Shown: one piece after another, positions 9,667 through 50,410 of the stretch
Numbering within the stretch: position 1 is the first letter of the stretch
Layout: every line of letters begins with the position of its first letter
Origin: an uncultured Clostridia bacterium
GTDB taxonomy: Bacteria > Bacillota > Clostridia > Christensenellales > CAG-1252
DNA length: 64,000 bases
Assembly: GCA_945482995.1 (NCBI GenBank)
Contig: CALYRM010000003.1
Coordinates: 10,150 to 74,149 of the forward strand
Direction: 5' to 3'
Notes under the pieces: model-generated
The model's input: the letters and a program-made list of their open reading frames with translations, nothing else
Database searches by the model: none
Told to the model about the DNA's origin: nothing
Position numbers and translations under genes: made by a program

Positions 9667-10767
9667 TTATACGTTCTTTTCCCATTTAGCGTATAGAGTT
9701 AAGTCGCCTGTAATTTGAACGAAATCGTTGAATTGAACTTCGCCAACACCGGTTATGAAGTTTCTATACCAGCCCTTAAAGGTGTAGCCTTCTAAAACAG
9801 GAGTAGGCATAGCAGGATAGTCGTCCAAGAAGTAGTGTCCGTAGTTTACTTCAAATACGTATTTACCTTGAACTTCATAAGTTTCAAATCCCGGAATTGT
9901 GCCGTTTACAGGATCGAACGTTACGGTAGCCTTGTTATTTTGTTCGCTGTTTAGTCTTGCAACCTCTTTCCAATAACTGCCGCCCTCATCGTCAACTTTG
10001 GTGTAAATAACCTGTCTTCTTGTGTCGAAATAGAAGTCGCCGACAATACCTTCGCTATCGTTAGGAAGCGTGGTTCCGCTTAGCCAAGTTGGGAAGCGGT
10101 CAAGATAGATAACCTGTGAAGAAGAGCCGTTTTTATTGGCAATTGTGATAATGAATTGATCACCAACAACCTCGCAGGAGATATCCTTGTAGTAATTGAA
10201 ATAGTATACAAACGGTTCGCTATCGTCCGAAAGGGTAATTACAACGCCCTCGCCGATTTCGTCAGTGAAAGGCTCCCACTTTTTGATACCCAAGCCGTCA
10301 ACGCCGTCTTTTCCTTTCAAAATAGAAACGTCAATCATTTGCGGATCGGAAATATTGCCGTCGGAGTCAATAGTATAGAAATAGAAATAAGGTGCGCCTC
10401 CAAGATCGGTAGCAGGCTCGATTTTATAGAATGAAATGCCTTGTTCTCCGTCTTTACCGTAGGGAACTTGAACCTTGGCGGTAGAGCCGTTGGTATAAAT
10501 CAAGGTAACCAATGTTACTTTGTTCTCGTCATCATAATCATACTTAACTTCGGCAATACCGTTACCCTCCGGCAACTCGAATCTATCGACGTTTTCAGAA
10601 CCGACATAGTGGATAACCATAAACGCCTTGCCGTCCTTATCGACAATACGTTCGATTTTTTCAATAGAAATTTTTTCTTCCTCTTCGTCCCAAGCAAACG
10701 AACAGCCTGCCAAAAGAACGGAAAGCAAAAGGATTAAAGTAATAACTAAAATCAAAGATTTTTTCAT
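9667..10767 (-). CDS. Surface lipoprotein with C-terminal Listeria-Bacteroides repeat (Flg_new) domain
   Basis: 366 aa with lipobox LLAGC. The C terminus VTFDPVNGT...LEGYTFKGWY...DLTLYAKW is a typical Flg_new repeat. Confidence 0.7.
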   Translation of the reverse strand: MKKSLILVITLILLLSVLLAGCSFAWDEEEEKISIEKIERIVDKDGKAFMVIHYVGSENVDRFELPEGNGIAEVKYDYDDENKVTLVTLIYTNGSTAKVQVPYGKDGEQGISFYKIEPATDLGGAPYFYFYTIDSDGNISDPQMIDVSILKGKDGVDGLGIKKWEPFTDEIGEGVVITLSDDSEPFVYYFNYYKDISCEVVGDQFIITIANKNGSSSQVIYLDRFPTWLSGTTLPNDSEGIVGDFYFDTRRQVIYTKVDDEGGSYWKEVARLNSEQNNKATVTFDPVNGTIPGFETYEVQGKYVFEVNYGHYFLDDYPAMPTPVLEGYTFKGWYRNFITGVGEVQFNDFVQITGDLTLYAKWEKNV

Positions 10768-10769: not shown

Positions 10770-13268
10770 CTAATCTCCTAAATAAGATGTTGCATTTTGT
10801 TGCATTTCTTCCATGGATGGCGACATTCCGAATAGCGAATGTTCCTTTTGGAAAACGAACTTAAATGGTTGATAACCTGTTACAAGGGTTACAGTTTTTA
10901 CTAATGTATTGTGGTCGACTTGAAGTTTGCCGAGAATGCTTCCCAATCCACCGCCGCCACCGCCGAATGAGGCAGGTTTAAGAGCAGGTAATTTGAGATA
11001 TTCGTCGAGCAAATCGACTTTGGTTGCTTGAATAGCGTCGGTAGGTGTCGCGCCGTTTAGGGCAGTCATACACTTTTGATCGAGTCCTACCGTGGTAACT
11101 ACCGAATAGTTGGCGCCACCGCCATAAAAAGCGATAGGAATATTTACATAAGCCTTGCTTTCAACAACTTTCTCGATATGGACGTTTTGCAAAATACGTT
11201 TAATCGGGAAAATATTATCTATCGAATAGCCGTCTCTTCCCAAAATCTCTTTAACAAGCGCAGAAATGCTTTCGCTAATTAATCCCGAAACGTCGAATTG
11301 ATCCCAAGTCTTGTAATCGTAGAACTTAGTTTTTCCGCTCAAATTGACCTTGACGGGGTAGGACGTACCCGAGATTCTTCTCGGAGCAAAGTCTACGCCT
11401 ACAAGCATGGAGTTGAGCAATTGGAAGAACGGAGCAATGTTGTCGGGGGTGTCGGGAGATAATAGGAACGGACCGTTAAATAAGCTTTCCAATGCAATAG
11501 CGCTTATACCCGAGCGGTAAAAGGCGCAGTCAATAACCTCGGTACTACCCTTAAAATCGCCTTGTACGCTTTCATCGGTCAATGCGTTTTGAAGAGCAAT
11601 AATCGCCTTTTTAAGCTCGTCCTTTGATGCGTACAAACCATCGTCGGTGCCGGCTGTGCCGTTAAGGTAATCTTTTAGCAATCTGTTACCGTCGCCATTT
11701 GCAGCCAAGTAATCTTTAAGCGTAATATTAATTGGAGCAATAGCCGAATATAGCGATTGAGTGATAAGTTCATTTACTTGCGAATACTCGTTTGCACCCG
11801 TCAAGAAAAGAAAGTTTCTTGCGTTTGTCAAACGACAGTTTCTTATGGTAAGGTTATTATTAGAATAGCTTCTCACAACCTGTCTACCGTTGGAAATACG
11901 CATATTGCGAAGCTCGACATTATCGCCGTCAACTTCGACAACGGTACCAACCGTATTAAGGAAGGATAACGATTCCACGTCGTCGCAGTTTTTCACAACT
12001 ACGTCGTTAATCAAAATATCGTCGCCGTCAACGTACATGCCGATATTATCTTGACCATATGCTGATATAAGGTTGAGATTAGTCATATCCGAGCCTTGCG
12101 AACCTCTCGGGGTACCAACCGTATAGAATGGAAGCGGACCTAGGAATAAGTCACTTGGATCGGTTGTCGGCACGCCGTTCAAGGTGCTTGACGGGAATGC
12201 TAGGTTGTGAAAGTTAATCATATAGCCGTTACCGTACATATCGGCTTTGACTCTAAGTCCAATCACGACTTCGGGTTTAAGCTGTTTGTCGGGAGTGGCT
12301 ATTTCGTTCCACTGTTTTAGGAATACGTCATTATACTTTGTTTTAACTCTTTGTACAAAAGATTTAGCGTCCACATTGCCTTTATCGTCGACCAAACCGA
12401 ACACTTTTTCGTTGTTTTGATATTGACTTTGCTTTGCCACGAACGAACATTGTAGTACGGCGATTTCACCCTTTTCCGACCAGTTTGTACAATATAGCAA
12501 GTCCTCGAAGTTATATACGTTTATACCGTTTTCAACGACAGTAAACGAGTAGTTGCCAAGCGATATATCTTCAGCGTCAAGGGTTGTCGAGAGATTTATA
12601 TCGACTTTGCCTGTGCCCTTAATATCAACTGCACCCGACATAACCGCCTTGCTGGACGAAACATCTACGTTTTCGGCGTCGAGAGAAAGCGTTGCGTTCC
12701 CCTTTGTTTCAATTGAAATAGTATCCAGCATTGATGACGGAATTGCAGTAACTTGAACGTTAAACGAAGCGTTTATCTTTTCGGAGTTTTGCAAGTCGTA
12801 TTGTCCGAAGTAATTGGTTTGATCGACCTTGCCAAAGCTTGACTGGCTGTTCACGGGTTGAACGTAAACAACGCCGTTCGTATATAGAATAGCGGTAAAG
12901 CTTCTTGAAACGTTGCCTTTTGCGTTTGAGCAAGTCAACACAACTTCGCCTTGCTTTAACGTTTTTAGATAGAACATACCGCTTTCTTCGACAATTTCAG
13001 CATTAGGTTCCCCGTCGCCCGTCTTATTTTGAACCTTCCAAACGAGGTTATTCCCTTCGCTAACCTTGTGATTACGGTTGTTTACGCCGGTTGCGTTGAG
13101 AACGTATTTTCCGTCGGTAACCTTAAAGGCTTCTATATCGTCATACGACCATTCTATATGTGAAACGTCAACGTCGATATAGTTATACGAAACGTTGACC
13201 GACACAATGGTTAGTGCCGAAATAAGGAAAGGAATCATGAGCAAAACAATAAGATTTTTCTTTTTCAT
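10770..13268 (-). CDS. Large membrane-anchored extracellular protein, Ig-like plus probable parallel beta-helix
   Basis: 832 aa with an N-terminal TM anchor and a Big_2-like segment (VLTCSNAKGNVSRSFTAILY). Degenerate beta-helix-like rungs (VVVKNCDDV, VELRNMRISNGRQVV, LTIRNCRLTNARNFLFL). Gly run GGGGGLGS. Start overlaps the upstream gene stop by 1 nt. Confidence 0.6.
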   Translation of the reverse strand: MKKKNLIVLLMIPFLISALTIVSVNVSYNYIDVDVSHIEWSYDDIEAFKVTDGKYVLNATGVNNRNHKVSEGNNLVWKVQNKTGDGEPNAEIVEESGMFYLKTLKQGEVVLTCSNAKGNVSRSFTAILYTNGVVYVQPVNSQSSFGKVDQTNYFGQYDLQNSEKINASFNVQVTAIPSSMLDTISIETKGNATLSLDAENVDVSSSKAVMSGAVDIKGTGKVDINLSTTLDAEDISLGNYSFTVVENGINVYNFEDLLYCTNWSEKGEIAVLQCSFVAKQSQYQNNEKVFGLVDDKGNVDAKSFVQRVKTKYNDVFLKQWNEIATPDKQLKPEVVIGLRVKADMYGNGYMINFHNLAFPSSTLNGVPTTDPSDLFLGPLPFYTVGTPRGSQGSDMTNLNLISAYGQDNIGMYVDGDDILINDVVVKNCDDVESLSFLNTVGTVVEVDGDNVELRNMRISNGRQVVRSYSNNNLTIRNCRLTNARNFLFLTGANEYSQVNELITQSLYSAIAPINITLKDYLAANGDGNRLLKDYLNGTAGTDDGLYASKDELKKAIIALQNALTDESVQGDFKGSTEVIDCAFYRSGISAIALESLFNGPFLLSPDTPDNIAPFFQLLNSMLVGVDFAPRRISGTSYPVKVNLSGKTKFYDYKTWDQFDVSGLISESISALVKEILGRDGYSIDNIFPIKRILQNVHIEKVVESKAYVNIPIAFYGGGANYSVVTTVGLDQKCMTALNGATPTDAIQATKVDLLDEYLKLPALKPASFGGGGGGLGSILGKLQVDHNTLVKTVTLVTGYQPFKFVFQKEHSLFGMSPSMEEMQQNATSYLGD

Positions 13269-14860
13269 TAGTTATTTGCCTCCAATTCCATAAAATGCTT
13301 GTATGATGATTTAAGTATAAGCACGACAGGCAATATCCCCAAGACAAGACAAACGCCCAAGCCTGCCAAAAATGCCAAATAACCGCTTACACCCTTATAC
13401 GAGATAAGCACTGCGGTAAGAGCGAAAACTAAGGGGAAAAGATATGCGAAAAGGCTTGAAGCAAAGGACGTTTTCTTTTTATTATGACGGATATGCAACT
13501 CTTCATTCAGTGAAATCAAAGAGAACACCGCCAAGAAAATTGCCGTCAACAAAAACGTCAAGAAGCCGTAACCCCAGGACATTGTTTTAGTAGACATCAA
13601 CACTAATAGGCTCACGAAAAGCGAAACCATTGAAAACGAATACGGAATGGCAACCTTGATAGCAAGCTGAATTTGATAAGGGACGGGTATAGTCTTAATT
13701 ATTTTTATAGTTTTATCTTCCATTGTAATATAGCCGTTTGCGCCTTGATTGATTACAACGGAGAAGAACATAATCACGAGCACGTCGACAAAGGTAATAA
13801 GCCCGGGGACGAGTGCCGTGTAGTACATAATGCTGCCTGCGCTCAAAACTGCGTTTATAGACTTAACTACAAGCTGTAATAAAAGGGGTTGAACCAACAA
13901 TAAGCCTGTAAAAGAATAAATATAATCCGAGTTTTTAGCAATCAACGAAAATTCTTTTTTGATAAGGGCAGGTACAACGCCCACAAGTCTAGTTTTGTGC
14001 GATTTAGTAATTCTTGTATCCGAAGTTGATATGTTTCTAACCATATGGAAAGAATATATAGTGATAGACAATCCGATAATGAAAACGCCCAGCGATAGCA
14101 AGCTAAACGGTAAAATCGCAGACATTGACTTATATACGAACATATCAACTAAGAAGTTGACGGGTACTGCGTAGCGCTGGAAAGTCAAAAACTTAGCGAT
14201 AGACTGATCGGAAAACAGGCTTATCATTTCGTTTTGCGCAACCAAATTGATAAAGATATCAAGTGCGTACGAGTAGAGAATGGATAGTCCGACAATGATT
14301 ACGATTGAAACCGAGAATTGTAGAATAAAATGACGTTTTAAGAAGGAAGTAAAAAGCCATAGCGGGTAAACGAAAATAAGCGCAATTCCGCCGACAAAGA
14401 AAAAGCTAACTATAGGATAGAAGAAAGCACCGAAAAAGAACAATGCGGTTTTACCTATATCTATACCGTAAGCAACCAATAGCGGAAATTGGAAAATTAA
14501 CGAGGTTATGCTGTGGCTAATCATCAAAAATACCATTTTAGAAAGTATTATTTGTCCGTTAGTAACAGGGTGTGTGGAAAGCTGTTCAATATCTTTAGCG
14601 TCAAAAAAGAGTTTTTTAGCTTGGAACAAGTCCGCAACAATAAGAAGTAGAGTTGTGACAAATAGGAAAAGCGTTAAAAAAGCGGTAGACGCACGCGGAA
14701 TATTGTTGATTTTATCGAGAATAGTGCCAAAAAGGTAGATTTCGAGCGTTACAAAAAGACCTAAAAAGACGACGGAAAAGAGAACCGACAGAATGGTAGA
14801 AACCACGCTGCGGTTTTGCTTAAACATCAATCTAAAATCTTTAAGTAACAAATTAAGCAT
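13268..14860 (-). CDS. Polytopic membrane protein, putative ABC exporter permease
   Basis: 530 aa with more than 10 hydrophobic helices. Lies 2 nt downstream of an ABC ATPase gene. Confidence 0.6.
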   Translation of the reverse strand: MLNLLLKDFRLMFKQNRSVVSTILSVLFSVVFLGLFVTLEIYLFGTILDKINNIPRASTAFLTLFLFVTTLLLIVADLFQAKKLFFDAKDIEQLSTHPVTNGQIILSKMVFLMISHSITSLIFQFPLLVAYGIDIGKTALFFFGAFFYPIVSFFFVGGIALIFVYPLWLFTSFLKRHFILQFSVSIVIIVGLSILYSYALDIFINLVAQNEMISLFSDQSIAKFLTFQRYAVPVNFLVDMFVYKSMSAILPFSLLSLGVFIIGLSITIYSFHMVRNISTSDTRITKSHKTRLVGVVPALIKKEFSLIAKNSDYIYSFTGLLLVQPLLLQLVVKSINAVLSAGSIMYYTALVPGLITFVDVLVIMFFSVVINQGANGYITMEDKTIKIIKTIPVPYQIQLAIKVAIPYSFSMVSLFVSLLVLMSTKTMSWGYGFLTFLLTAIFLAVFSLISLNEELHIRHNKKKTSFASSLFAYLFPLVFALTAVLISYKGVSGYLAFLAGLGVCLVLGILPVVLILKSSYKHFMELEANN

Positions 14861-14862: not shown

Positions 14863-15684
14863 TTATTCTCCGTAAATACTTACAAAAATCTTAGGCAACT
14901 GCAATCTTCTATTTGGTTCCTTGTTCAAGTCGTATAAGGCGACAACCGTTCCGTTGTTGATAATGGCTACTCTGTCGCAAAGACGGCTGACAAGCTCGAT
15001 ATTGTGCGAGGTTACAAAGACAGCTTTGCCGTGATCGGCGTACTCTCTCATCATCTTTTTCAATGCTTCGACAGCCATAATATCCAAACCAACGGTAGGC
15101 TCGTCAAGAATCCAAACGTTGGGATTGTGCATAAGGCTTGCGATAAGACAAAGCTTTTGTTTCATACCATGCGAATAGTTAGAAATACGATTATGCAATT
15201 CTCTTTCGTCAAGTGATAATCTACCGGCAAGGTATTTTGTGTTTCTCAAAAAATCGCCCTCGGACATATGGTAAATGCTTGCGATAAATTCAAGATAATC
15301 TATTCCACGCATAACGTCATAGCATGCAGGTTCGCTCGCTACATAACCAAAGGTTTTTTTTGCGCCAATTGGATCCAATACAATATCGTGACCTTCAACC
15401 GTAATCGAACCCGAATTGAATTTTTTAGAGCCTATAACGCAGTCAATGGTTGTGGATTTACCGATACCGTTGCGACCGATAAAACCAAAGAGTTCACCCT
15501 CATACACTTCGAGATTAAGTCCTTTAAGCACTTGCTTTTCGCCGTAGGACTTGTGTAAATCGGTGATTTTGATAGCTACTCTGCGACCGTTTTCCGCAGT
15601 TGGAACTTCTACGACGTTTCCTTGCGGTATGTTTTTGGTTTCTTTTTGTGTTTTATCGATTTTTTTAGTATCGGTTTTTTTCAT
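14863..15684 (-). CDS. ABC transporter ATP-binding protein (ABC-2 type)
   Basis: Walker A GRNGIGKST, signature YSHGMKQKL, Walker B VWILDEPTVGLD. Has a ~45-aa Lys-rich N-terminal extension. Confidence 0.85.
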   Translation of the reverse strand: MKKTDTKKIDKTQKETKNIPQGNVVEVPTAENGRRVAIKITDLHKSYGEKQVLKGLNLEVYEGELFGFIGRNGIGKSTTIDCVIGSKKFNSGSITVEGHDIVLDPIGAKKTFGYVASEPACYDVMRGIDYLEFIASIYHMSEGDFLRNTKYLAGRLSLDERELHNRISNYSHGMKQKLCLIASLMHNPNVWILDEPTVGLDIMAVEALKKMMREYADHGKAVFVTSHNIELVSRLCDRVAIINNGTVVALYDLNKEPNRRLQLPKIFVSIYGE

Positions 15685-15699: not shown

Positions 15700-16030
15700 T
15701 TGTCATCCCAAGCCATCCATATTGTCATTCTGTGCCATATATGTCATTCTGTGCCATATATGTCATTCTGTGCCATATAAAATGTCATCCTGAGCGAAGC
15801 GTAGCGTAGTCGTGAGGATCTCATCCACTTTGTCATCCTCAAGCGTTGCGTAGCGTAGTCGTGAGGATCTCATCCGCATCGTCATTCTGAGTCATCCATA
15901 TTGTCATCCTGAGCGGAGTGCAACGAAGTCGAAGAATCTCATCCTTGTTCCGTCATGTCGACCGAAGTGGAGACATCTCTATCAATGCACTGCCTCTTTG
16001 CGAAGCATACGTACAGCCTTTATCCCAACT
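15700..16030. repeat. Intergenic mosaic repeat array (at least 8 units), including a 3 x 19-bp tandem at 15723-15779
   Basis: tgtcattctgtgccatata x3, then gtcatcctgagcgaagcgtagcgtagtcgtgaggatctcatcc, a second similar unit, gtcatcctgagcggagtgcaacgaagtcgaagaatctcatcc, cgtcatgtcgaccgaagtggagacatctct, and ctctttgcgaagcatacgtacag. Confidence 0.9.
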
Positions 16031-16147: not shown

Positions 16148-17443
16148 TTATTCAATAATAGCGTTTTTCTTTCTATTAATAAACCAAATGTGAGAAATGT
16201 TTTCTCTTTGGAAACACTTGTATTTGGAATGACATTCCGGACAATAAAACTTGTCTTCGTTTTCCTCAACAGTTGCTTTGCAGACGGGGCAGAAAATAGT
16301 ATACATATCGTGTGAAACGTCAACTAGCGTAAGTTTGCTGTCAAGCCATTTTGCGATAAGTTGTCTTTCTGATAGCGTCGAAACAAGTTCTTTGTTAGTC
16401 GTTAGGCTTTCACCGTCCGTCAAACTCCAAAGAGTTAAAACGTCAAAATCTTCGGCGGCTCTGTATTCTAATGGAATTTCATCAATATCGTCTCTATTGA
16501 TAGATGAAGAAATCATTAAAATATGCTTTGCAATCATTTCCGTTTTGCTTAAATTCACTTCAAGCGCAAAAGCACAAACGCCTGCTATTTGTGTAAGCGT
16601 AACATCAAAGTTGACGGATTTTAAAATCCACTTTTTATTAGTTGTTGCGTCGCCATCCACAACGAGCGTGAAACCACGGCTAACGAATTCTTTAAGGATA
16701 ATCGTCAAGTAATACGAACTTAACTCCTCTTTAACATCTTCGATATTGTTGTATAACAAGTTTTTAGTATAAAAGGTGTAGCATTGCTTATATAGATTAT
16801 CGTGAATTAAAATATTCGTCTTTTCTATATGTCTGCTAATAGGGGACGTTTTGGAAATAGTGCGATAGAAGCGAGTGTTCTTGATAAAGTTGATTTTTTT
16901 CAATAGCATTTTCGCCTTTTTCATAGTCTTGATAAGCGTCTTGTCAGCGTCAACCAAGCTATTGTTTGCGATAATCGGCAACATTGCCAAATATAAATCT
17001 ACGTACTGTTTAAGTTCACCCTCTAAGATATTGATAAGTAGGCAGATAAACTTGTTTTCGTAAATGGCTAACTCGTCTACATTTTGGTGATAATACACCT
17101 TTTCTGGCACCATTTCAAGTCCTCTGCTTTTCCAAAAACCGGGTTCCTTTAGCGAACGGGTAAAGTCCTCGTTAGAAAGTTGTTTGACAAGCTCGATTCG
17201 AGAAACGATTTCTTCACGACGACTTGCGATATGCGGATGCTCTACTATTGACAATATGACGTTGATAACTTTCTGAATATCGCACAAAAAACTAAAATCA
17301 TGCTCTCTGCACTTTGCTTGTAGACTAATATCGGGCATATCCTCGATATGCTCAAAGAAGTCTACGGCAGTAGAATGTTGTTTGCCGTAAGAGTGAATTT
17401 GCTTTACATGGTCAATCAGAAAGTTTTGTTCAATCGTTCTCAT
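16148..17443 (-). CDS. Partner of the McrB-like ATPase (McrC-position protein), C-terminal zinc ribbon, function unknown
   Basis: 431 aa. TAATG overlap with the upstream ATPase gene. IYENKFICLLINILEGE segment is reminiscent of McrC/DUF2357 N-domains. The C terminus has CPVC-x14-CPEC. I could not find a convincing PD-(D/E)xK motif by eye. Confidence 0.5.
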   Translation of the reverse strand: MRTIEQNFLIDHVKQIHSYGKQHSTAVDFFEHIEDMPDISLQAKCREHDFSFLCDIQKVINVILSIVEHPHIASRREEIVSRIELVKQLSNEDFTRSLKEPGFWKSRGLEMVPEKVYYHQNVDELAIYENKFICLLINILEGELKQYVDLYLAMLPIIANNSLVDADKTLIKTMKKAKMLLKKINFIKNTRFYRTISKTSPISRHIEKTNILIHDNLYKQCYTFYTKNLLYNNIEDVKEELSSYYLTIILKEFVSRGFTLVVDGDATTNKKWILKSVNFDVTLTQIAGVCAFALEVNLSKTEMIAKHILMISSSINRDDIDEIPLEYRAAEDFDVLTLWSLTDGESLTTNKELVSTLSERQLIAKWLDSKLTLVDVSHDMYTIFCPVCKATVEENEDKFYCPECHSKYKCFQRENISHIWFINRKKNAIIE

Positions 17444-19266
17444 TAGAGTGCCTTAATAAGCTTGTTAATAATCTTTTTGCTGTGAGCCATAACGTCCTTG
17501 CCGTATGTCTTATCCAATAAAGCCAAAGTATCTTTAAGAGCGGGCTTGACATAATCTTCAAATCTACCCTCGAGCTTAGCGAAAAGCTTACGGCAGAGCA
17601 TCAAGTCAAGCGCGGTTTCCTTAGTTCCGCCACAAGCGACGAATACAGGAACTATATTTTTGATTTGGTTCAAGATACGGTTACCGACAGTGAGTGAGAA
17701 TGTTTCATAAACATAATCCAAAATGGAAGATAGCTTATTCATATCCTCGCTGTTCATACAGTTGTCGGTGTTCTTTAATGCTTCACTGTACAAAGCGCGC
17801 AAACCGCTACCGGACAAGTTGATGGGGCTAACGTCCTCTTCAACCTCGAACGGCTCGTTGTATTCGTCGAAGTCAATTGTGATGGCACGGTCATAAACCT
17901 TATCAGTAATTGTAAATGTGGAATCGTCCTTGTTTGCCGTTCCAACGAAATAGCTATTTTCGGGGATATTGATATATCCGTCAACAAGTTTCAAAGGTGG
18001 CAAGAAGTCGTTAGGCAAACTTACAATCTTTATTCTCCACTCGGGAACAGGGTATTCCAAGACTGACAATAGGTCAGCGAAGTAATACTCGACTCTCGAA
18101 ATGTTCATTTCATCGAGAACGTAAATGTTGATTTCGTCGCTGTTGTAGTTGGCTTCATAGAGAGATGCCAAGAACTCTGTTTCGGAATAAACCTTTGAAA
18201 ATTCGTTGAAGAATCCCAAGATATTTGATTTATCACGCCAAGTTGCTTGTACGGGCATGAACAAAACCTTACCGTTTACAAAGTGCGCGAAGTAACGAGG
18301 TAGTGAGCTCTTACCTGTACCCGACAAGCCCTCTAAGATTTCGAAGTGTGAAGCTGCAAAACCGCTGACGAAGAATCTAATTGTATCGATATCATAATAC
18401 AAATGTTCTTTCTTGCTTAGGTATTGTCTGAATTGTAAACATAATTGATCGAGTGAAATATCGTCGCTAACTAATGGTTTAGCGTCAAAGGCTTCAAATT
18501 TAACGTCTATTTTGCTAAGCTCGGGAAATACCTTTTCTCTCTCTTCTAAACCGGTTGAGCGAGCAATAACTTCTCCTGTGCCGTCACTGAGAGCACCGCC
18601 GACGCCTGCAACTCCGCCTTGAATGTTAGCGTTGTTGTTTTGAGTGTTACTGTTTACGTTAGCGTTTTCGTCACTGCCGAAACTTGAAGCAACGTCCATA
18701 TCTCTTATATCGTCGTCATCAAATACAGGCTCGTCCTCTTTGTTGAAAAACTTAAAAGGTTTGCCGACTTTTACGAAGTTTACAACCAACATTACAACCG
18801 AGCCAATTGCTGCAAAACCGATTACGTATACCAATAAAGCAATACCCAAGGTTTGTCCGACAAATGTTAAAACTCTTACAATGTTTTCACCGTTCAATGG
18901 CTTTTGGATGACGATGCCCAAACCCCATGATAGAAGAATACAGCCAAGAGCAATAGCGACATAAATCCCAATCATTTTGAGTGAGAAGGGCTTTTTGCCT
19001 GCAATTGAAGCACTACGCCTTGCATATGTGAATGCTAATGCGAAAATAAAGAAATAAATTGCAACAAGCATTAAGCAAATATAACCGCCAATCTTAGCTT
19101 CGATGGGTTGCATATTTAGCCCATTTGCGAGCATATTGATTATATTTTTCTCGGGGAAAATTGTGTGGGCAGCGTCAACACAGCACCCCACATACATTGC
19201 AACAAATGAAAAGATTGCAATTAGAGCCAAAAAAATCAAATTCTTTCTTGTAAATACCGTAAACAT
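17443..19266 (-). CDS. McrB-family AAA+ GTPase with an N-terminal four-helix transmembrane domain
   Basis: 607 aa. Residues ~1-170 form four hydrophobic helices, followed by an Asp/Asn-rich linker. Walker A GLSGTGKS. Walker B plus McrB signature YVLDEMNISRVEYYFADLLSVLE. VGTANKDDS (NKxD-like). Strong RBS aaggag. Confidence 0.75.
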   Translation of the reverse strand: MFTVFTRKNLIFLALIAIFSFVAMYVGCCVDAAHTIFPEKNIINMLANGLNMQPIEAKIGGYICLMLVAIYFFIFALAFTYARRSASIAGKKPFSLKMIGIYVAIALGCILLSWGLGIVIQKPLNGENIVRVLTFVGQTLGIALLVYVIGFAAIGSVVMLVVNFVKVGKPFKFFNKEDEPVFDDDDIRDMDVASSFGSDENANVNSNTQNNNANIQGGVAGVGGALSDGTGEVIARSTGLEEREKVFPELSKIDVKFEAFDAKPLVSDDISLDQLCLQFRQYLSKKEHLYYDIDTIRFFVSGFAASHFEILEGLSGTGKSSLPRYFAHFVNGKVLFMPVQATWRDKSNILGFFNEFSKVYSETEFLASLYEANYNSDEINIYVLDEMNISRVEYYFADLLSVLEYPVPEWRIKIVSLPNDFLPPLKLVDGYINIPENSYFVGTANKDDSTFTITDKVYDRAITIDFDEYNEPFEVEEDVSPINLSGSGLRALYSEALKNTDNCMNSEDMNKLSSILDYVYETFSLTVGNRILNQIKNIVPVFVACGGTKETALDLMLCRKLFAKLEGRFEDYVKPALKDTLALLDKTYGKDVMAHSKKIINKLIKAL

Positions 19267-19295: not shown

Positions 19296-19324
19296 GTTAT
19301 ATTAATTGTCATTTTGACTGGCAA
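19296..19324 (-). promoter_or_regulatory. Sigma-A type promoter TTGCCA-17-TATAAC for the McrB-like operon
   Basis: Reverse complement reads TTGCCA gtcaaaatgacaattaa TATAAC, about 30 nt upstream of the ATG at 19266. Confidence 0.55.
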
Positions 19325-19371: not shown

Positions 19372-20322
19372 TTATATGTTTTCGTCCGTGTTATCCTTTT
19401 TATTTTCTTCGCTTTTCAAGTTCTTGCTAACGTCAACAGAATCTATATGCTGTTTATCAGCATTGTTATAGAGTGCCGTCAATTCGTCGTCGGAGAAGGA
19501 TAATATATTATTTTCGTCTAGGGAAAGCATAGTTAATAGCTTTTCCAAACGGGATTGTCTAAGTTGATATGTTTTATTAAGTGTTATATCCAATATTATC
19601 ATACAAGCAATTAGGGCAATTATAGTAACTATTCCTAGTGGGGATTGTACGAATAATATTATTGCGCCGATAAAGGGAATGTATTTTCCCGTGTATTTAC
19701 CTACTACGTCCTCGGGCGTGGCCTTGTATGAGTCTTCCATATTATTTGAGTCGCCTCGCGTTACAAAACGTGTATACGTTTCGGTTTTTTCGATACGAAT
19801 AATACGGTGAATGATATTGCTACCTTGTGGGTTTTTATATACGATTACATCGTATTGTTTGAGTGTTGTGGGATCTACGTCTTCGATAACAATAAGTGCG
19901 TAGGTGGGGAATTGATTGTTTAGGTTGTTTTCTATTAAATAATCATTGCTCGGATGTTTTTCGCTCATAGAGCCTGATGCAACGACAATTACGCTTTTAT
20001 TGCCAAGTTTCAACCAGCCACATTTGTCAGCTATTGCTAATCCTAAGCATGCCGCGACAACGATAATACCGATTGTAGAAAATATTCTTTTTACAATTTT
20101 TAAGGTTTTTGTTTTCTTCTTTGCTTCGGGTTTGCTTTCCTCTTTAAAGCTTTTTAAAAGCTCCAAATCGTATTCACCATCATCTATATTGTTTTTTGCA
20201 CCCTTCCGATAACGATAAAAAAGGAAGGCGAACAATATAATCAAACCCGCCATAATTACAGAAAGTATCATGATTCCCAAAAGCTGTCGTTTGCTTAGGG
20301 CTAAAAGCAAAGAATTAATCAA
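19372..20322 (-). CDS. Signal peptidase I, archaeal/ER type (SipW-like, S26B), with extra N- and C-terminal segments
   Basis: 316 aa. Catalytic Ser box VVASGSMS, His box NIIHRIIRI, and TRGDSNNMEDS box, in the same order as B. subtilis SipW. C-terminal TM as in SipW, plus a second N-terminal TM and a ~75-aa acidic tail. Confidence 0.8.
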   Translation of the reverse strand: MINSLLLALSKRQLLGIMILSVIMAGLIILFAFLFYRYRKGAKNNIDDGEYDLELLKSFKEESKPEAKKKTKTLKIVKRIFSTIGIIVVAACLGLAIADKCGWLKLGNKSVIVVASGSMSEKHPSNDYLIENNLNNQFPTYALIVIEDVDPTTLKQYDVIVYKNPQGSNIIHRIIRIEKTETYTRFVTRGDSNNMEDSYKATPEDVVGKYTGKYIPFIGAIILFVQSPLGIVTIIALIACMIILDITLNKTYQLRQSRLEKLLTMLSLDENNILSFSDDELTALYNNADKQHIDSVDVSKNLKSEENKKDNTDENI

Positions 20323-20618: not shown

Positions 20619-21671
20619 CTACTTAGGTTGTGCTGTGATTACGATAGTATACTTTGGAACTGTAATACTAGCCTCAGCTTTTTCAAGAGCATCGTTTAAG
20701 TTATCGATTTTTTCTGCCTTAGTGTTACCTGCAATGTTTGATAAGGTTTCTAAAGTGCTAAGCTTAATATCACTAGCCTTAACACTACCGCTTGTAACCA
20801 AAGGAGTGCTGGATTCGCCGAATGTATAGCCATCCAAAACGGCACCTGAATTAACGAAGTTTACAAGACGGAGCAATAATTCGGCTTCGGGTAATGTTAA
20901 ACCAGTCACTTCGTAAGACTCTGCACTGTATACAGTGGTATCACGAGAGTCCAATGTTCTGCCTGGGTTGCCAAATCCGAAAGCTTGTCCCCAACCAAAT
21001 CTAACTTCGCCATCGAATACATATGTACTGCCACTGAGTTTGTAGGTGAAGCCCTTATCTGTTATGCCTGTGGAGTCAAGAGTTGTTTCTGTCCCAATAG
21101 TAATCTTTGCTGGCGCAGTTTTGTTTTCTGTGTCGATAACGTAAGTATTTTCCGTGCCTGCTTGCTTCTTGATTGTAGGTAATGGGTTGCCGTCCATATC
21201 TACTGCATAAGACGGAAGTGTGATATAAGCTCTTTCAGAATCGTATGTCCAGTTTTCACTGTTCTTGAAGAAACCTGCAGCATTGATAACTGATTCCGGT
21301 AGTTTAACAGCGAATGTCAATTCACCAACTTTGTCGCCGTTTGAAACGTTTCCGCTAAAAGTGAAGGAAAGGTTTTCGGTGCGATTGTCTACAGTAGCTG
21401 TATGCATGATGTAACCTGTGTTGTCATTCTCTTGAGGAGCGAATACGATATCGTCAACTTTGAGTGAAGATTCTCCGACAAGGTTATCTAAATTGATTTT
21501 GATATCCGCATTGCTTACGGTAACAACGTCAACGTTGCCTTGTTCTTGAACGGTTGAACCGCTTGAAATCATCCAGGCAGCAAAACCTGTTGCAACGAGA
21601 GCGATACAAACGAATATCACTACACCAAACGTAATGGCTTTTCTGCTGAAATTTGAACGTGTTGTTTTCAT
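20619..21671 (-). CDS. Secreted beta-rich protein with SipW-cognate-like signal (GFA-AW junction), putative fibre/accessory subunit
   Basis: 350 aa. N terminus ...FVCIALVATGFAAWMISSGS. Shares C-terminal motifs with the 241-aa neighbour (FGWGQAFGFGNP versus FAWGEKGNP; KYTIVI versus KYQIHL). Confidence 0.6.
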   Translation of the reverse strand: MKTTRSNFSRKAITFGVVIFVCIALVATGFAAWMISSGSTVQEQGNVDVVTVSNADIKINLDNLVGESSLKVDDIVFAPQENDNTGYIMHTATVDNRTENLSFTFSGNVSNGDKVGELTFAVKLPESVINAAGFFKNSENWTYDSERAYITLPSYAVDMDGNPLPTIKKQAGTENTYVIDTENKTAPAKITIGTETTLDSTGITDKGFTYKLSGSTYVFDGEVRFGWGQAFGFGNPGRTLDSRDTTVYSAESYEVTGLTLPEAELLLRLVNFVNSGAVLDGYTFGESSTPLVTSGSVKASDIKLSTLETLSNIAGNTKAEKIDNLNDALEKAEASITVPKYTIVITAQPK

Positions 21672-21720: not shown

Positions 21721-22446
21721 CTAAGCACCGGTAGATGGAGCAACAGTCTCTAAGTGGATTTGATATTTACCGTCGTTTAATTTACGAACAGCGGAAAGCA
21801 TTGCGCTTGCAGCGGTTGCATTATCTTTTGAATAAGGAAGTCCGTTAAAATATGTGTACGGATTGCCCTTTTCACCCCAAGCAAACGTTATTGTAATCTC
21901 TGCAGTGTAGGTATTGCTTGCAGCAGCTGTAAAATTTTCAGCTGTCAACTCAACGAATAGGTTGTCTGCGCCCCATGCTTCTGCTTCTGCTAGATTTTTA
22001 GTTGTCCCGCCAACTTTCAAAGTTGGGTTTGCTAAATATTTAGCTGTAACAGCACTATTGAAAGCACCTGCTTCAACACCCTTGTATGAAACAGCAACCT
22101 TAAGTTTGTTTCCATTTAGCATTTGTTCTGCTGTAGTTCCGCTAACTGTTGGAGTTAAGGTAACTGTGATTTTTGCTGTCAAGGCATCGGGGGGAACGTC
22201 GGTTGCGGACAACCAACCATAGTTTGTTCCTGCGGGAGCAGCAGCTTTACCGAAAGTGATATTACCACTTGCAGCAGCGGTTGCTGTGTATGTGTAATCT
22301 TTAACTTCGTCTGCTACGAAGCTGCCACCATCAACAGTTTCGTTTACGGGGTTGACGATTAACCAAGCTGCGAAACCAATACCAACTACTGAAGCCAATA
22401 CTAGAATGGCGATGATTGGGATTAAAATTTTCTTAGTTTTTGTCAT
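21721..22446 (-). CDS. Secreted Ala/Thr/Gly-rich protein with SipW-cognate-like signal, putative major fibre subunit
   Basis: 241 aa counted from the ATG at 22446, which has a perfect RBS (aaggagataaaaaaaATG). The ORF-track start at 22512 lacks an RBS. N terminus MTKTKKILIPIIAILVLASVVGIGFAAWLIVNP. Confidence 0.6.
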   Translation of the reverse strand: MTKTKKILIPIIAILVLASVVGIGFAAWLIVNPVNETVDGGSFVADEVKDYTYTATAAASGNITFGKAAAPAGTNYGWLSATDVPPDALTAKITVTLTPTVSGTTAEQMLNGNKLKVAVSYKGVEAGAFNSAVTAKYLANPTLKVGGTTKNLAEAEAWGADNLFVELTAENFTAAASNTYTAEITITFAWGEKGNPYTYFNGLPYSKDNATAASAMLSAVRKLNDGKYQIHLETVAPSTGA

Positions 22447-22560
22447 TTTTTTTATCTCCTTTAAAATTTTGTTTTTGATTTTTTGTTTTTGACGATTTAT
22501 ATCTACACTCATAAGCCTAAAGGCTTACGAAGTGATTAACGAAATATGGCTACAATTTAT

Positions 22561-24277: not shown

Positions 24278-24810
24278 TTGTCATCCTGAGCGGAGCGTAG
24301 CGTAGTCGTGAGGATCTCATCCTTGTTAATCGTCGTGTCGAGCGCAGTTGAAGTTAATCGTCATCCTGAGCGGAGTGTAACGGAGTCGTGAGGATCTAAT
24401 TGACAGCACCGCTGTCATCCTGGAAGAGTTGTTCGAGGGACCTCACTACAAGCACCGACTCTTTGCGAAGCATACGGATAGACATTCATGCCATATTGTC
24501 ATTCTGAGCGCAGTCGAAGAATCTCATCCGCATTGACATCCTTGCCCCGATAGACGCCATCTCTACATAAAAGGTCATCCTCAAGCGGAGTGTAACGGAG
24601 TCATGAGGATATAATCCTTGTTCCGTCATGTCGACCGTAGTGGAGACATCTCTAAAACGGGGTAATGAACATTCTTGAGAACAGAACTCAAGCGTTCCAT
24701 ATAAATCACGCAGTCCACAACGAATTGCAATCGTTAGGTCGCAATTCAATTCACGGAGTGCTGCTTCACGAGAATTCATGAAACCAACGGTTTCAATTCA
24801 TTCTGAAAAT
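24278..24810 (+). repeat. Intergenic mosaic repeat array ending in a ~190-nt composite element (24614-24810)
   Basis: Units ttgtcatcctgagcggagcgtagcgtagtcgtgaggatctcatcc, cgtcgtgtcgagcgcagttgaag, cgtcatcctgagcggagtgtaacggagtcgtgaggatct, ctctttgcgaagcatacggatag, ttgtcattctgagcgcagtcgaagaatctcatcc, and others. The composite element is about 95 percent identical to 48797-48987. Confidence 0.9.
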
Positions 24811-24843
24811 CAATAAATATTGATTATATGTAAGAGAAAAAGT

Positions 24844-27800
24844 ATGTATAGAGTAGATAATAAAAATAAAAAAGAATATCGTAGAGTGACTACAAAAGCG
24901 AAGTATTTTGTAGTTCTTTCGCTATTCCTTTTGTTACTACTCGTAGTAGTGGGTTCTTCTGCTTGGAATCTCCATTTGAGAGTAATCGGATTTGTCGGTG
25001 ACAATCCCGAAATTACCAACCCCGTAACCATTGTAAGCGGAACCAACGCCAACAACCTATTGCTCAAATATGTTGACTACAGCGAATTTACCGAAACAAT
25101 AGAGTATAACGGAAAAATCTATTATACATGTACATACAACGGCAACACTCATACACCGAAAATTAAAAATATAGAAGATGACGCTCGTGATTTTGATTTG
25201 ACAAAATTCAAATACGAATACACTTGCCTTTATTTGCCTAATAATACGACAAAAGGCGAATGGGTCGCCGTTAATTCTCAAACTACTATAACCGCACCAA
25301 AAGAGAGTGGTTGGTATAAAGTAGTTATTACATACTCAGATTTAGAATCGGATTTCAATTATTCTTCATATATCGGATCAGCTACACTCTACTTTGCAAT
25401 TCAACCAAAAGAAATAGAGGTTAGCGTTTCACGTTCCGAAAGCGTTTACGGTGACGCAACCAGAATTAACGAAATCGAACAGACCGTAGCTTCGGGTGTA
25501 TTGTGTGGTGCTGATACCGTTGATTCACTTAATTCTACTTTTAGCTTGCAAAGTAGGGATAATTCCCTTTCGCAAGCAAGCGAAGAAACAAACCTTTATG
25601 CAGGTGAATATAACATTGTTGGTACCGATAATTCTAGAAATTACGCTATAACCTTTAAACCAAAAATCGTAGAAGATGGTACTTACGCTTTATATACAAT
25701 CACCAAGCGACCTATTACGGTTCAGATACTTGATCAAATAAGCGTTTATGGTGATTTACCTTTTGACTTTGCTAATTTAGATAACTTGAATAATAATAAA
25801 GTTGCCAAGATTAGCGTTAATACCTTGGCTTATTCTGACAAAGTTAGCGACGTAATAAGTGTTTCATGCGGATTAACTCTATTGGAAAATGAAAAAACAA
25901 TTACCTCTAATGTAGGTGAATATCCTATTGTTGGTATTAATATCAACGACAACTACGAGGTTACGTTTGCAAATGGTTCTTGGACTGATTCTGCAGAATG
26001 TGGTACTTATACAATAACAAAAGCACCTCTTAACATGACGGCAACATCATTTAAACTCACATATGGTGCTGAAATGCCCACTTATTCCGTTACATATGAA
26101 GGCTTTAAAAATGGCGAAACCAAGAATGTTATTGTCGGCAATCCGTCATTTACATGCACTTATGTGCCAAATAAGCAAAACGGTTCGGTAAGGACGTATA
26201 GCATTACACCGAGCTTGGACGAACAAACTAACTATGAAATTAATCCGATAGACGGTACTTTAACCGTTAGCAAAAAAGCGCTAACGATTACTCTTGACAG
26301 TAAATCAACCCATTATGGCGAAAAGGCTCCTGCATTTACTTGTACGCCAACAGGCTTTGTTTATAGCGAAAGTTTTACAACATATAAGTCTGATTTCAGC
26401 TTAGAGAATTATGTAACCGATGATTATACAGTCGGCGACTCTATTGGCGAATATAATATAGCTTGGTCAATATTGGAGAGTGAACTCGAATACATTTTAA
26501 CAAATTATGACTGCACTCTTGTAGCAAATAAATTGACTGTAAATGCTCGTCCTATATCAGTAACAATAGATGATAAGTCGAGCGTGTACGGTGCTAATCC
26601 CGTTTCTCTTACTGCAACCGTAGCCGTTACTCAAGGCTATACATTGACGGGAAATCCGATTTATGGTACAGATAATCCATATACGTTATCAACTTCCGTT
26701 ACCAATACTATCGGTTTTGGTACATATCCTATTGTAGGTACAAGAGAGAATAGCAATTACGATATTACCTTTGTCGGCACATTCGAAAAAAACAAAGGAA
26801 CTTATACCGTAACTAAAAAAGCAATTTCAATAGTATGGTCTAATACTTCGTTTACCTATGACGGCAGCTCTCACAAACCAGTGGCAACAGCAGGGGGGTT
26901 AGTGAATGGCGATGATTGCACGATAAACGTTTCGGGTGAAAAAACAAATGCAGGAAGCTATATCGCAACTGCAGAAAATGTATCAAATTCAAATTACATC
27001 TTGCCGACTACAAATTTGACCGCAAGCTTTACAATTGCTCCAAAGGACGTAACGATTACTTGGACGAATATTTTGTTTACTTATGATGGAAAATATCATA
27101 AACCTACTGCAACGGCAGGGGGCTTAGTAGACGGCGATGATTGCACGATAAACGTTTCGGGTGAAAAAACAAATGCAGGAAGCTATATCGCAACTGCAGA
27201 AAATGTATCAAATTCAAATTACATCTTGCCGACTACAAATTTGACCGCAAGCTTTACAATTGCTCCAAAGGACGTAACGATTACTTGGACGAATATTTTG
27301 TTTACTTATGATGGAAAATATCATAAACCTACTGCAACGGCAGGGGGCTTAGTAGACGGCGATGATTGCACGATAAACGTTTCGGGTGAACAAATAAACG
27401 CAAATACCGATTCAAACCCAACGTATACCGCTACCGCTTCTATTGTCAAGGGCGAAGTAATCGACAATAACTACAAAATTATAGAAAGAGGGACTCAAAA
27501 TTTCACGATTGAAAAGGCACCTTTGACAATTACAGCCGAAGACAAAACAACTTTGGTTGGTGTCGAACCTCCCGAATTTACCGTAAAGTATGATGGCTTT
27601 GTGAATGGCGAAACGCAATCGGTATTAGGTGGAGAATTGACGTTTGCTGCGATTGATTCTTCTATTACTGCTACCGCCGGCGAATATGTTGACGTTATTG
27701 TTCCAATGGGACTTACCTCTGATAACTATGATATATCATTTGTAAGCGGTAAACTTACAGTAGTTAATGGATTCGAAAAACCTACGATCGGTAACAACAG

Positions 27801-48561: not shown

Positions 48562-48680
48562 TATGAAAAAATAAAGAAAAATATAACATTATTTCTTATT
48601 TGAGGTGCATTTTTTTATTATTTATCCTATTATATATTTGCATGGCGGGATACGCTTTGTATAATGTGCAAAATTGGGTT

Positions 48681-48990
48681 ATGTCATTCCGAGCGAAGTG
48701 GAAAAATCTAATCCTTATTTGTCATTCTGAGCAAAGTCGAAGAATCTCATCCGCATTGTCATCCTGAGCGAAGCGTAGCGAAGTCGTGAGGATCTAATCC
48801 TTGTTCCGTCATGTCGACCGTAGTGGAGACATCTCTAAAACGGGGTAATGAACATTCTTGAGAACTGAACTCAAGCGTTCCATATAAATCACGCAGTCCA
48901 CAACGAATTGCAACCGTTAGGTGCAATTCAATTCATGGAGTGCGTCACGAGAATTCACGACGGCAAAGCTGTCAAATCATTCCGAGACTT
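48681..48990 (+). repeat. Mosaic repeat array ending in the ~190-nt composite element (48797-48987)
   Basis: atgtcattccgagcgaagtggaaaaatctaatcc, gtcattctgagcaaagtcgaagaatctcatcc and gtcatcctgagcgaagcgtagcgaagtcgtgaggatctaatcc, then the composite element. Confidence 0.9.
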
Positions 48991-49035: not shown

Positions 49036-50250
49036 ATGAATAAAAAATTATGTATACTATCTTTTATCGTTGCAGTTTTGCTATTAGCTACAACGTTGTC
49101 GGCTTGTTCTGCCTATAACGGCGCTAATAATTCAGAAGAGGGCAAGGGAATCAAGGTAACTCTCGATTATGGCGACAAGAATATAAACAAAACATTGAAG
49201 CTATCGTCTAACGATGGTTTGGACGACTATACGAACGTAATAGTTGACGATAAAGCAGTTATAGGTTGGGTTGACGAAAACGGAAATGATGTTGAAGTTT
49301 CAAATTTGAGTGATAACGCAACTATTTATCCAAAATGGGGCGTTTGCGTGAGATTTTTCAATGAAAATTACGAGGAAATTGCCAAAAGAGTTGGAGTGCA
49401 GGGCGCAAGTTATCCGATTCCTGCATATCAAGCAAAGAAAGGCTATAAATTTGAAAGTTGGCTTGAAATGGGTACTAACGAACCGCTTACTTTAGCGGTA
49501 TTTCCCGAAAAGAACAAGGACTTTTTCGCTTCGTATACTTATCAAGTCTACACAATCGATTACGATTTACAGGGTGGTGTTGCTTCCGCAGAACTTCAAA
49601 CAGAATATACAGTGCAAAGTTCGTTTGAATTGCCTACTGTTAAAAAACAAGGTTTGCTTTTCTGTGGTTGGTTTGACGAATATAATCAAAAGATAACCGA
49701 GATAAAAAGCGATACTACCGGCAATATGTACTTGACTGCGAAATTTACCGACACAACTTTTAGTACTATTGTTAGAGAAGGAAGCTCAACTGTTACCGAT
49801 AGTGGCATTGAAAATCAACAAGTTGATTTTGTAGACATTTCAAACTTCATTGATTTAGATACTTGTAAAAAATACGGTTATACAAAGTTGCAAATTACCG
49901 TTTCCATGGACGTGAAAGAGGAATTTGACGGTTATCAACATTGTTTCTTGTATTCGGATTCATATGTGGGAGTAGATAAGTCCAATTCTTCGCTAAAAGG
50001 TTTATTCTATAAATATATGCTTGGTGAACAAGAACAGGTTTCAGATCCATACTTTTTGGCAGGATATAGATTCGAGCATGGCGCAGGTGAAAATAATGGT
50101 AATTGGGCACGCTACAATATAACGTTTACAGTCGACTTGTCAGATCTCATTTCAAGCAAAAAATTATTTATTCGTTATAGCGCAAGCGGAATTTGGGAAG
50201 ATACCTGGATAAATAGAAACATTGCAGTTTCGGTAAATGCTATAAGATAA
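49036..50250 (+). CDS. Surface lipoprotein with Listeria-Bacteroides (Flg_new) repeats
   Basis: 404 aa with lipobox LSAC. GWVDENGN...IYPKW, GYKFESW and LLFCGWFDEYN...MYLTAKF modules. Confidence 0.7.
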   Translation: MNKKLCILSFIVAVLLLATTLSACSAYNGANNSEEGKGIKVTLDYGDKNINKTLKLSSNDGLDDYTNVIVDDKAVIGWVDENGNDVEVSNLSDNATIYPKWGVCVRFFNENYEEIAKRVGVQGASYPIPAYQAKKGYKFESWLEMGTNEPLTLAVFPEKNKDFFASYTYQVYTIDYDLQGGVASAELQTEYTVQSSFELPTVKKQGLLFCGWFDEYNQKITEIKSDTTGNMYLTAKFTDTTFSTIVREGSSTVTDSGIENQQVDFVDISNFIDLDTCKKYGYTKLQITVSMDVKEEFDGYQHCFLYSDSYVGVDKSNSSLKGLFYKYMLGEQEQVSDPYFLAGYRFEHGAGENNGNWARYNITFTVDLSDLISSKKLFIRYSASGIWEDTWINRNIAVSVNAIR

Positions 50251-50410
50251 ATGTCATTCCGAGCGTACTCGAGGAATATCATCAATATTGTCATTCTGAG
50301 CCTGTTGAAGAATATCATCAATATTGTCATTCCGACCAACGTGGAGAAATCTCCCTATAAGCACTGACTTAATGCGAAGCATGCGAACATCCTGAATTGC
50401 AATTATCCAA
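50251..50410 (+). repeat. Mosaic repeat cluster
   Basis: atgtcattccgagcgtactcgaggaatatcatc, ttgtcattctgagcctgttgaagaatatcatc, ttgtcattccgaccaacgtggagaaatctcc, cttaatgcgaagcatgcgaac. Confidence 0.85.

Follow-up and report, generated by a model that had tools for sequence, protein, structure and literature searches.

McrBC is the textbook GTP-driven restriction motor, in which McrC activates the McrB ring by insertion (Niu et al., 2020, PMC7680126; Nirwan et al., 2019, PMC6624300). In the related CoCoNuT systems (CnuB/CnuC; Bell et al., 2024, PMC11090510), the GTPases carry long coiled coils, the partner combines DUF2357 with CPxC zinc ribbons, and the nuclease is inactivated or lost in some types; their companions, on loci of the mobile or defence type, are nucleases (HEPN and others), helicases or TerY-P modules. 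The same authors named, in one paragraph, a further class, CoCoPALM, and deferred its details to a later publication. There, an McrB-like GTPase with an NxD(D/E)-type signature has a membrane-spanning, FtsB-like N-terminal domain (transmembrane plus coiled-coil helices), usually with coiled coils on both proteins, is paired with an McrC/DUF2357 homologue and associated with signal-peptidase-family genes, and is proposed to serve surface appendage assembly and not restriction (Bell et al., 2024, PMC11090510). CoCoPALM goes unmentioned in the text-form supplementary files of that paper, and our literature searches on CoCoPALM follow-up work, on SipW with McrB, on GFAAW (the signal motif described below) and on PDC-M26 returned nothing beyond that paragraph. 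Here we describe a two-gene McrBC-like system in a stretch of 64,000 nucleotides (the window) from an uncultured Clostridia bacterium of the Christensenellales (GCA_945482995.1, contig CALYRM010000003.1, positions 10,150 to 74,149). Where CoCoPALM has been named in the literature and not described, this locus supplies an anatomy and a gene list.

The pair and its domains lie on the minus strand, as follows (window coordinates):

17443–19266, minus strand: membrane-anchored McrB-like (NxD-type) AAA+ GTPase, 607 residues (open reading frame, motifs, AlphaFold and profiles)
19266–18757, minus strand: transmembrane domain of the GTPase, residues 1–170 (hydrophobic cores and AlphaFold)
18756–18547, minus strand: disordered Asp/Asn/Gly linker of the GTPase, residues 171–240
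18546–17446, minus strand: GTPase domain and C-terminal helical domain, residues 241–607
16148–17443, minus strand: McrC-like partner, 431 residues (DUF2357 family matches, hhalign and AlphaFold)
17326–16679, minus strand: DUF2357 helical domain of the partner, residues ~40–255
16678–16319, minus strand: alpha/beta domain of the partner without a nuclease motif, residues 256–375
16303–16175, minus strand: CPxC...CPxC zinc ribbon of the partner, residues 381–423

The 607-residue protein is an intact McrB-like AAA+ GTPase whose reader has been swapped for a four-helix membrane domain, and the partner keeps its DUF2357 domain and zinc ribbon without a recognisable nuclease. Like canonical McrBC (E. 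coli; T. gammatolerans), the pair has Walker A and B motifs, the Nx(x)D signature and a partner gene that follows immediately and is translationally coupled, the stop and start sharing one nucleotide in the junction CTC TAATG AGA; unlike canonical McrBC, it has no DNA-reader N-domain and no PD-(D/E)xK nuclease, is membrane-anchored and sits in an envelope operon. Its closest detectable GTPase domains are of the CoCoNuT kind (35–38% identity, E 6e-49), and its partner likewise combines DUF2357 with CPxC ribbons, but the window GTPase carries a transmembrane domain in place of the long coiled coils, and none of the modules that travel with CoCoNuT is at the locus. No nuclease gene was found in the operon.

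With CoCoPALM, the locus shares an McrB-like GTPase, a membrane-spanning N-terminal fusion, an McrC/DUF2357 partner, association with a signal-peptidase-family gene and a proposed non-restriction role in surface appendage assembly. Its N445-K-D447-D448 fits the NxD-D/E wording and aligns gap-free to the NTDE of a coiled-coil relative, as it also does to the NTAD of E. coli McrB; by wording and alignment, membership of the NxD clade is thus a candidate assignment. In contrast to CoCoPALM, the membrane domain here comprises four transmembrane helices followed by a disordered low-complexity linker, with no long coiled coil predicted: neither model shows an extended coiled coil, the AlphaFold helices reaching at most ~40 residues and packing in bundles, and hhalign of the N-terminal domain against E. 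coli FtsB gave a probability of 0.1%, a weak test given its single-sequence target. Nor does the CoCoPALM paragraph mention an ABC-2 exporter, an ~830-residue protein, a Flg_new lipoprotein or GFAAW-signal proteins. CoCoPALM is nonetheless the nearest class on record, and we conclude that the system in the window is a variant of, or a neighbour to, CoCoPALM and not a proven member.

For comparison we scanned one genome per GTDB species, at least 538 of which encode a relative, and assembled 81 loci from the best 80 of these matching species genomes and one metagenome contig. The GTPase motifs GLSGTGKS (residues 313–320), LDEMN (D385, E386) and GTANKDDS (N445, D447, D448) are at least 97% conserved across 79 orthologues. 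An earlier reading of the DNA, made from its letters (the original prediction), had described the two overlapping open reading frames, with coordinates and a TAATG junction that our analysis bears out, and had recognised the McrB-type module. It had also pointed to an NKxD-like G4 motif; the motif is there, but it is the Nx(x)D signature of McrB, and position 446 is K or R across the family.

The four hydrophobic N-terminal helices and the Asp/Asn/Gly linker that had been predicted are likewise real. Hydrophobic cores at about residues 11–29, 61–81, 100–120 and 144–163 are found in all 20 family members aligned, and the AlphaFold model has helices at 7–30, 59–88, 96–119 and 126–166 and disorder from 166 to 238. 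More than 4,700 relatives are present in the database at E ≤ 0.001, with query coverage of 98–100% in all 120 listed. In the 20-sequence alignment the N-terminal region is in register down to single residues (FTRKN, P93, S95, K97 and a juxtamembrane VDKPFxFF). Because full-length homologues conserve the four cores in register, we take the transmembrane domain to be real. An assembly artefact, a concern raised with the original prediction and for which N-terminal conservation was the proposed check, is ruled out, as all full-length homologues keep the domain. Short motifs are conserved at either end of the linker, VDKPFxFF...FDDDD and DRExVFPxLSxID. The distribution of Lys and Arg around the cores in the 20 members is compatible with an N-in/C-in topology, which would place the catalytic domain in the cytoplasm.

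Standard family searches barely register the protein. Pfam AAA_5 scored 18.8 bits, under its cutoff of 22, NCBIfam gave no match, and sequence and profile HMM searches of the PDB with both proteins of the pair found no McrB or McrC and only chance transmembrane or zinc-ribbon matches. Alignment of family profiles was more telling. Against E. coli McrB, hhalign gave a probability of 80% (E 1.4e-5). The 146 aligned columns extend from Walker A to the signature, and the NTAD of McrB is gap-free against N445-K-D447-D448. Against a coiled-coil McrB-like protein of a Nostoc plasmid, the probability was 100% (E 6e-49); GTANKDDS aligned to GTANTDES, and GTANKDDSTFTITDKVYDRA was gap-free versus GTANTDESTYEITRKVYDRA. 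Foldseek matches of the GTPase model, which is of medium quality (predicted local distance difference test score, pLDDT, 70), were to MCM, to E. coli McrB (6ut6_A; E 5.8e-3, TM(target) 0.40) and to dynein. A nucleic-acid reader domain is absent from the N-terminus, its place being taken by the conserved four-helix domain and disordered linker. In these comparisons, the GTPase is closest to plasmid-borne coiled-coil relatives of McrB with the NxD signature and much further from E. coli McrB.

The partner had been predicted to resemble McrC/DUF2357 proteins, on the strength of an IYENKF segment and a terminal CPVC...CPEC, and its family upholds this. Of 32 family members, 22 matched DUF2357 (PF09823, McrC N-terminal; best E 5.2e-10); in the window copy DUF2357 is under detection, and no Pfam family matches it. 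Aligned by hhalign to the DUF2357/zinc-ribbon partner of the Nostoc protein, the family matched over residues 51–264 (E 1.3e-10; LAIYENKF versus LDLYENRV), and the CPxC...CPxC ribbon at its C-terminus shows homology to the first of the ribbons in that Nostoc partner (E 3e-5). No similarity was found by hhalign to E. coli McrC or to a nuclease-bearing Lactococcus partner.

The failure to find PD-(D/E)xK in the partner also held up. Beyond residue 240, invariance is confined to E359, C385, P386, C388, C401, C404 and W420. The family alignment has no conserved D...(D/E)xK within residues 256–375, none of the 32 family members matches a nuclease family of Pfam, and Foldseek, run with the model against BFVD and the PDB, found no fold that matched significantly. 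Comparison of the alpha/beta domain with four partners by hhalign was negative, with E > 0.19 against the nuclease-bearing ones. This domain may nevertheless be a degenerate nuclease fold. The AlphaFold model of the partner (pLDDT 83; predicted template-modelling score, pTM, 0.79) is weak only at residues 76–89 and 110–122, which are also the most conserved stretches of the protein; by analogy with McrC, these are probably loops that fold on insertion inside the GTPase ring.

The ribbon raises the question of whether the pair handles nucleic acid at the membrane, retaining a DNA/RNA-directed activity from its McrBC/CoCoNuT kin, the ribbon binding DNA or RNA that is exported or taken up, for example as matrix DNA together with fibres. 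McrB motors act on DNA, and the ribbon is homologous to that of a CnuC-like partner; for CnuC proteins, both the CPxC ribbons and the inactivated nuclease domains have been proposed to bind nucleic acid (Bell et al., 2024, PMC11090510). However, the pair has neither reader domain nor nuclease, the operon contains no competence or DNA-processing gene, and the alpha/beta domain matches no nucleic-acid-binding fold. We regard this explanation as very improbable.

Some partner homologues, P0273 (833 residues), P0286 (1095 residues) and that of locus L085, have long C-terminal extensions with acidic Pro/Val/Glu-rich repeats. The extensions also hold one to three copies of an unannotated domain of ~110 residues (...SRISWxxxSF...VKLxIKGKTLVAFFALD...), and these homologues occur in loci without the SipW operon.

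That operon surrounds the pair in the window with the following genes:

19372–20322, minus strand: SipW/archaeal-type signal peptidase I, 316 residues, with extra N- and C-terminal transmembrane extensions (catalytic S118 and H172 conserved)
14863–15684, minus strand: ATP-binding cassette (ABC) ATPase, 273 residues, DrrA/GldA-like, ABC-2 type
13268–14860, minus strand: polytopic ABC-2-like permease, 530 residues (no Pfam match; an orthologue has a weak ABC2_membrane_4 match)
10770–13268, minus strand: conserved protein of 832 residues with an N-terminal anchor and no known family
9667–10767, minus strand: lipoprotein (LLAGC), 366 residues, with a C-terminal Flg_new/Listeria-Bacteroides repeat
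20619–21671, minus strand: GFAAW-signal protein of 350 residues with a C-terminal FxWG...NP motif, a putative SipW substrate or fibre subunit
21721–22512, minus strand: second GFAAW-signal protein, 263 residues
23556–24257, plus strand: GFSAW-signal protein, 233 residues, divergently transcribed
24820–32553, plus strand: giant surface protein, 2577 residues, with MBG_2 repeats and a Flg_new domain

Across the comparative set the order is conserved: SipW peptidase, transmembrane GTPase, partner, ABC ATPase, ABC-2 permease, ~830-residue protein and Flg_new lipoprotein. Out of 81 loci, the GTPase is present in 81, the partner in 80, the ABC ATPase in 74, SipW in 72 (in each case directly 5' of the GTPase), the permease in 71, the 832-residue protein in 68 and the lipoprotein in 56; order and strand are identical wherever operon genes are present, and most absences are contig ends. 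The genes are tightly packed, with median intergenic gaps of 0–6 nucleotides and a median of 3 nucleotides between SipW and the GTPase. Metagenome contigs repeat a matching architecture of 11–12 genes, including the divergently transcribed giant MBG_2/Flg_new protein. The best 80 genomes are metagenome-assembled genomes of gut Clostridia (labelled Christensenellaceae, Oscillospiraceae and Eubacteriales) and of Bacilli/'Mollicutes', the latter RF39-like, Anaeroplasmataceae and Coprobacillus.

Sequence conservation of the pair is high, at 40–71% identity. Across loci, identity of the GTPase to the window copy tracks that of the ABC ATPase (rho 0.81), the permease (0.80) and the 832-residue protein (0.79) no less closely than that of its own partner (0.82). 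At a mean identity of 50%, versus 36% for SipW, the GTPase ranks second in conservation among the proteins of the block. The pair is thus a fixed, co-diverging, tightly packed component of the operon across two bacterial classes.

Two other components share this conservation while lacking annotation: the 832- and 530-residue proteins are kept in ~70 species, and Pfam, NCBIfam and PDB-profile searches assigned the former to no family and likewise found no relatives of the latter. Many invariant Gly and Asn positions in the 832-residue protein suggest a repetitive beta-rich fold.

The peptidase is a confident member of its family (TIGR02228, E 3.3e-23, above cutoff), and across 72 orthologues the conservation of S118, H172 and D191 is 95% or more. 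Bacillus SipW has ~190 residues; the window enzyme, at ~316, has an extra N-terminal transmembrane helix with a Lys-rich linker and a ~70-residue C-terminal tail past its last transmembrane helix.

Directly 5' of SipW lie one to four genes for proteins whose hydrophobic N-terminus ends in a near-invariant GFAAW. We counted 71 open reading frames in which a hydrophobic N-terminal segment closes with G-x-[AS]-A-W; 61 have GFAAW itself and 68 lie upstream of the GTPase, compared with 3 occurrences of the motif in 406,000 residues elsewhere in those reading frames. This configuration resembles the SipW-TasA/CalY operons of Bacillus, in which a SipW-type peptidase also stands beside secreted proteins whose signal ends in a small-aromatic-Ala-Ala-aromatic pattern (GGGTWAAF in TasA), and by this analogy the GFAAW proteins are probably dedicated SipW substrates. 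Unlike those of Bacillus, the putative substrates in the window lack similarity to TasA or camelysin in Pfam, NCBIfam and PDB-profile searches, and the 350-residue protein matches no family in any of the three. To our knowledge, an NTPase, an ABC exporter and McrBC-like genes are all absent from the SipW-TasA/CalY operons of Bacillus.

The signal defines a new N-terminal class, and the proteins that bear it belong to no known family. It comprises a positively charged leader, ~20 hydrophobic residues and then GFAAW (variants GFSAW, GSSAW and AGATW), and is found on proteins of 200–430 residues and on giant adhesins, in the window and 45 related loci, almost exclusively beside SipW. A divergent high-GC relative has the variant motifs AGATW and AFSAW and keeps the C-terminal FxWG...NP. 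The giant MBG/Flg_new adhesin is often divergently transcribed beside the operon; that of the window (2577 residues) has an N-terminal hydrophobic segment ending in GSSAW. By eye only, the C-terminal stretch of this protein looks like an autoprocessing domain of the Hint/intein kind (CLAEGT..., CLAEGTLITLADGT...), followed by a low-complexity tail.

We think it somewhat probable, on balance, that the GTPase and its partner are an McrBC-derived module taken over for envelope work in the service of the SipW surface system. The original prediction had offered two readings, an AAA+ machine serving that system and an abortive-infection derivative of McrBC; the comparative evidence, a fixed operon and co-divergence, favours the former, and the way in which the module would serve the system is what we infer here. 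As in McrBC, six GTPase subunits would form a ring, tethered to the membrane by 24 transmembrane helices through flexible linkers. The partner loops at 76–89 and 110–122, of low confidence in AlphaFold, would insert in the ring and trigger GTP hydrolysis, and the GTPase cycle would, together with the ABC-2 exporter, drive or gate the export of the GFAAW proteins, their processing by SipW or their assembly. The complex would thus be no nuclease but a switch or an assembly platform at the membrane. More specifically, and only tentatively, the GTPase complex, the ABC-2 exporter and SipW could form a new envelope machine of monoderm gut bacteria that exports and assembles GFAAW fibre or adhesin proteins.

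Were this so, the motor of a restriction enzyme would have been re-used as an engine of surface-appendage assembly. The locus is in any case a clear and testable instance of McrBC losing both reader and nuclease, the motor having become a strongly conserved core subunit of an operon of roughly ten genes for cell-surface proteins. At least 538 species-level genomes carry the operon; they come from Firmicutes lineages of the gut (Christensenellales-like Clostridia and RF39-like Bacilli) that are largely uncultured. Besides the ABC ATPase and the peptidase, all other components of the operon lack annotation. An understanding of the operon would establish a new apparatus, for the surface or for secretion, in bacteria that abound in the gut and would show what an McrB ring can do besides acting on DNA.

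Several observations weigh against a role in surface assembly. What links the GTPase to SipW, the exporter and the GFAAW proteins is synteny only, and a profile search of PDB sequences detected no similarity of the GFAAW proteins to TasA or to any solved structure. In addition, a disordered linker of 60–70 residues is a poor transmitter of force and suits a tethered switch over a motor; given its length and conserved ends, a tethered switch or platform is at least as plausible as a force-generating motor. The remaining points concern relatives of the pair outside the operon. By tblastn, plasmid relatives match in the AAA+ domain only (residues ~230–605, 35–38% identity for the closest) and are annotated as AAA ATPase, EVE-domain or DUF3578 proteins; the best are ~800 residues long, with long coiled-coil N-termini and NxD-E signatures, and are followed by a ~700-residue DUF2357 protein with several CPxC ribbons. 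These relatives, which lack the transmembrane domain, sit among insertion sequence (IS) elements, helicases and toxin-antitoxin genes, a defence-like setting. The PADLOC candidate model PDC-M26A matches the AAA+ domain of the window GTPase (E 2.7e-33). Finally, pairs of transmembrane GTPase and zinc-ribbon partner stand alone, without the operon, at loci L080, L081, L083 and L085, so the pair may work on its own.

The linker bears most directly on a regulatory alternative, in which the transmembrane domain senses membrane load (uncleaved GFAAW precursors or envelope stress) and the GTPase–partner complex then regulates either gene expression or the ABC exporter, with a protein or a nucleic acid bound by the zinc ribbon. 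The length and disorder of the linker and the short motifs conserved at its two ends would suit such a sensor, as would a partner that keeps its ribbon and has no catalytic domain, and operon membership fits it too. Yet no DNA-binding or signalling output domain was detected, and the conserved catalytic machinery suits a switch and a motor equally. We consider this alternative unlikely, if worth keeping in view; it overlaps with the proposed service to the SipW system and differs only in the use made of the GTP cycle.

The relatives outside the operon speak instead to the other predicted reading, a membrane-acting abortive-infection or defence module, in which infection leads the partner-activated ring to permeabilise the membrane through its transmembrane domain and the linkage to the operon is incidental. 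The module does descend from McrBC-type restriction systems, transmembrane effectors are common in abortive-infection systems, and the plasmid-borne relatives, the PDC-M26A match and the stand-alone pairs are all points in favour, the plasmid relatives also fitting the published description of CoCoNuT. Our results do not support this reading. The synteny is fixed, with gaps of 0–6 nucleotides in two bacterial classes; the pair co-diverges with transporter genes, and its identity is high. The setting of the operon contrasts with that of the plasmid relatives, and no relative bearing the transmembrane domain was found in 72,556 plasmids, 50,697 phage records or the contigs of IMG/VR. The partner matched none of the PADLOC models, no effector domain was detected, and even the stand-alone pairs adjoin housekeeping and not defence genes. 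We therefore judge a defence function improbable. The phylogenomic survey proposed alongside the original prediction, of defence islands versus SipW loci, came out on the side of the SipW operon in the 81 loci, whose context is present in 74 of them, with the stand-alone pairs as a qualification; of the seven exceptions, five end too early to tell and two (L080 and L081) are truly without the block.

At three of the stand-alone pairs (L080, 9434–12605; L083, 1795–5357; and L081) the neighbouring housekeeping genes include DnaJ, a pseudouridine synthase and TrkAH, and the GTPase linker of L083 is a charged helical segment and not Gly/Asn-rich. One phage record (MT835511.1, 39899–41206, an unannotated human-faecal 'Bacteriophage sp.' contig) codes for a protein related to the GTPase domain at 30% identity (residues 232–607, E 4e-42), with no match to the transmembrane domain. 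A PHROGs search returned chance-level matches only.

Two features of the DNA flanking the pair had also been predicted:

19296–19324, minus strand: promoter-like match TTGCCA-17-TATAAC 5' of the GTPase gene (consensus resemblance only)
15700–15913, strand not assigned: dispersed intergenic repeat copies with 19- and 49-nucleotide units and RRATGACA arrays

The claim that the pair has its own promoter does not extend to the family. TTGCCA-17-TATAAC is present at 19324–19296 on the minus strand but was not listed by a promoter scan, and elsewhere the median gap of 3 nucleotides between SipW and the GTPase marks it as no family feature. The repeat arrays said to bracket the pair are real, but those at 15717–15913 belong to a dispersed intergenic family that also occurs at ~24.3, 48.7, 50.3, 51.8 and 58.2 kb and is not specific to the pair. 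We reject the idea that the repeats or the promoter-like site delimit a mobile or autonomous unit, the repeats being intergenic genome-wide and the operon gaps elsewhere ~0–6 nucleotides.

The repeat family occupies 15700–15913, 24279–24420, 48680–48800, 50250–50335, 51820–51870 and 58215–58264, the copies lying between genes and nearly all on the minus strand. Its 49-nucleotide unit, which contains GATCCTCACGACTACGCTACGC, occurs in 5 copies versus 0 expected, and RRATGACA has 44 matches versus 9 expected. Inserted copies have enlarged the gap between the partner and the ABC ATPase in the window to 463 nucleotides. The repeats may be a REP-like (repetitive extragenic palindromic) element or binding sites for a regulator.

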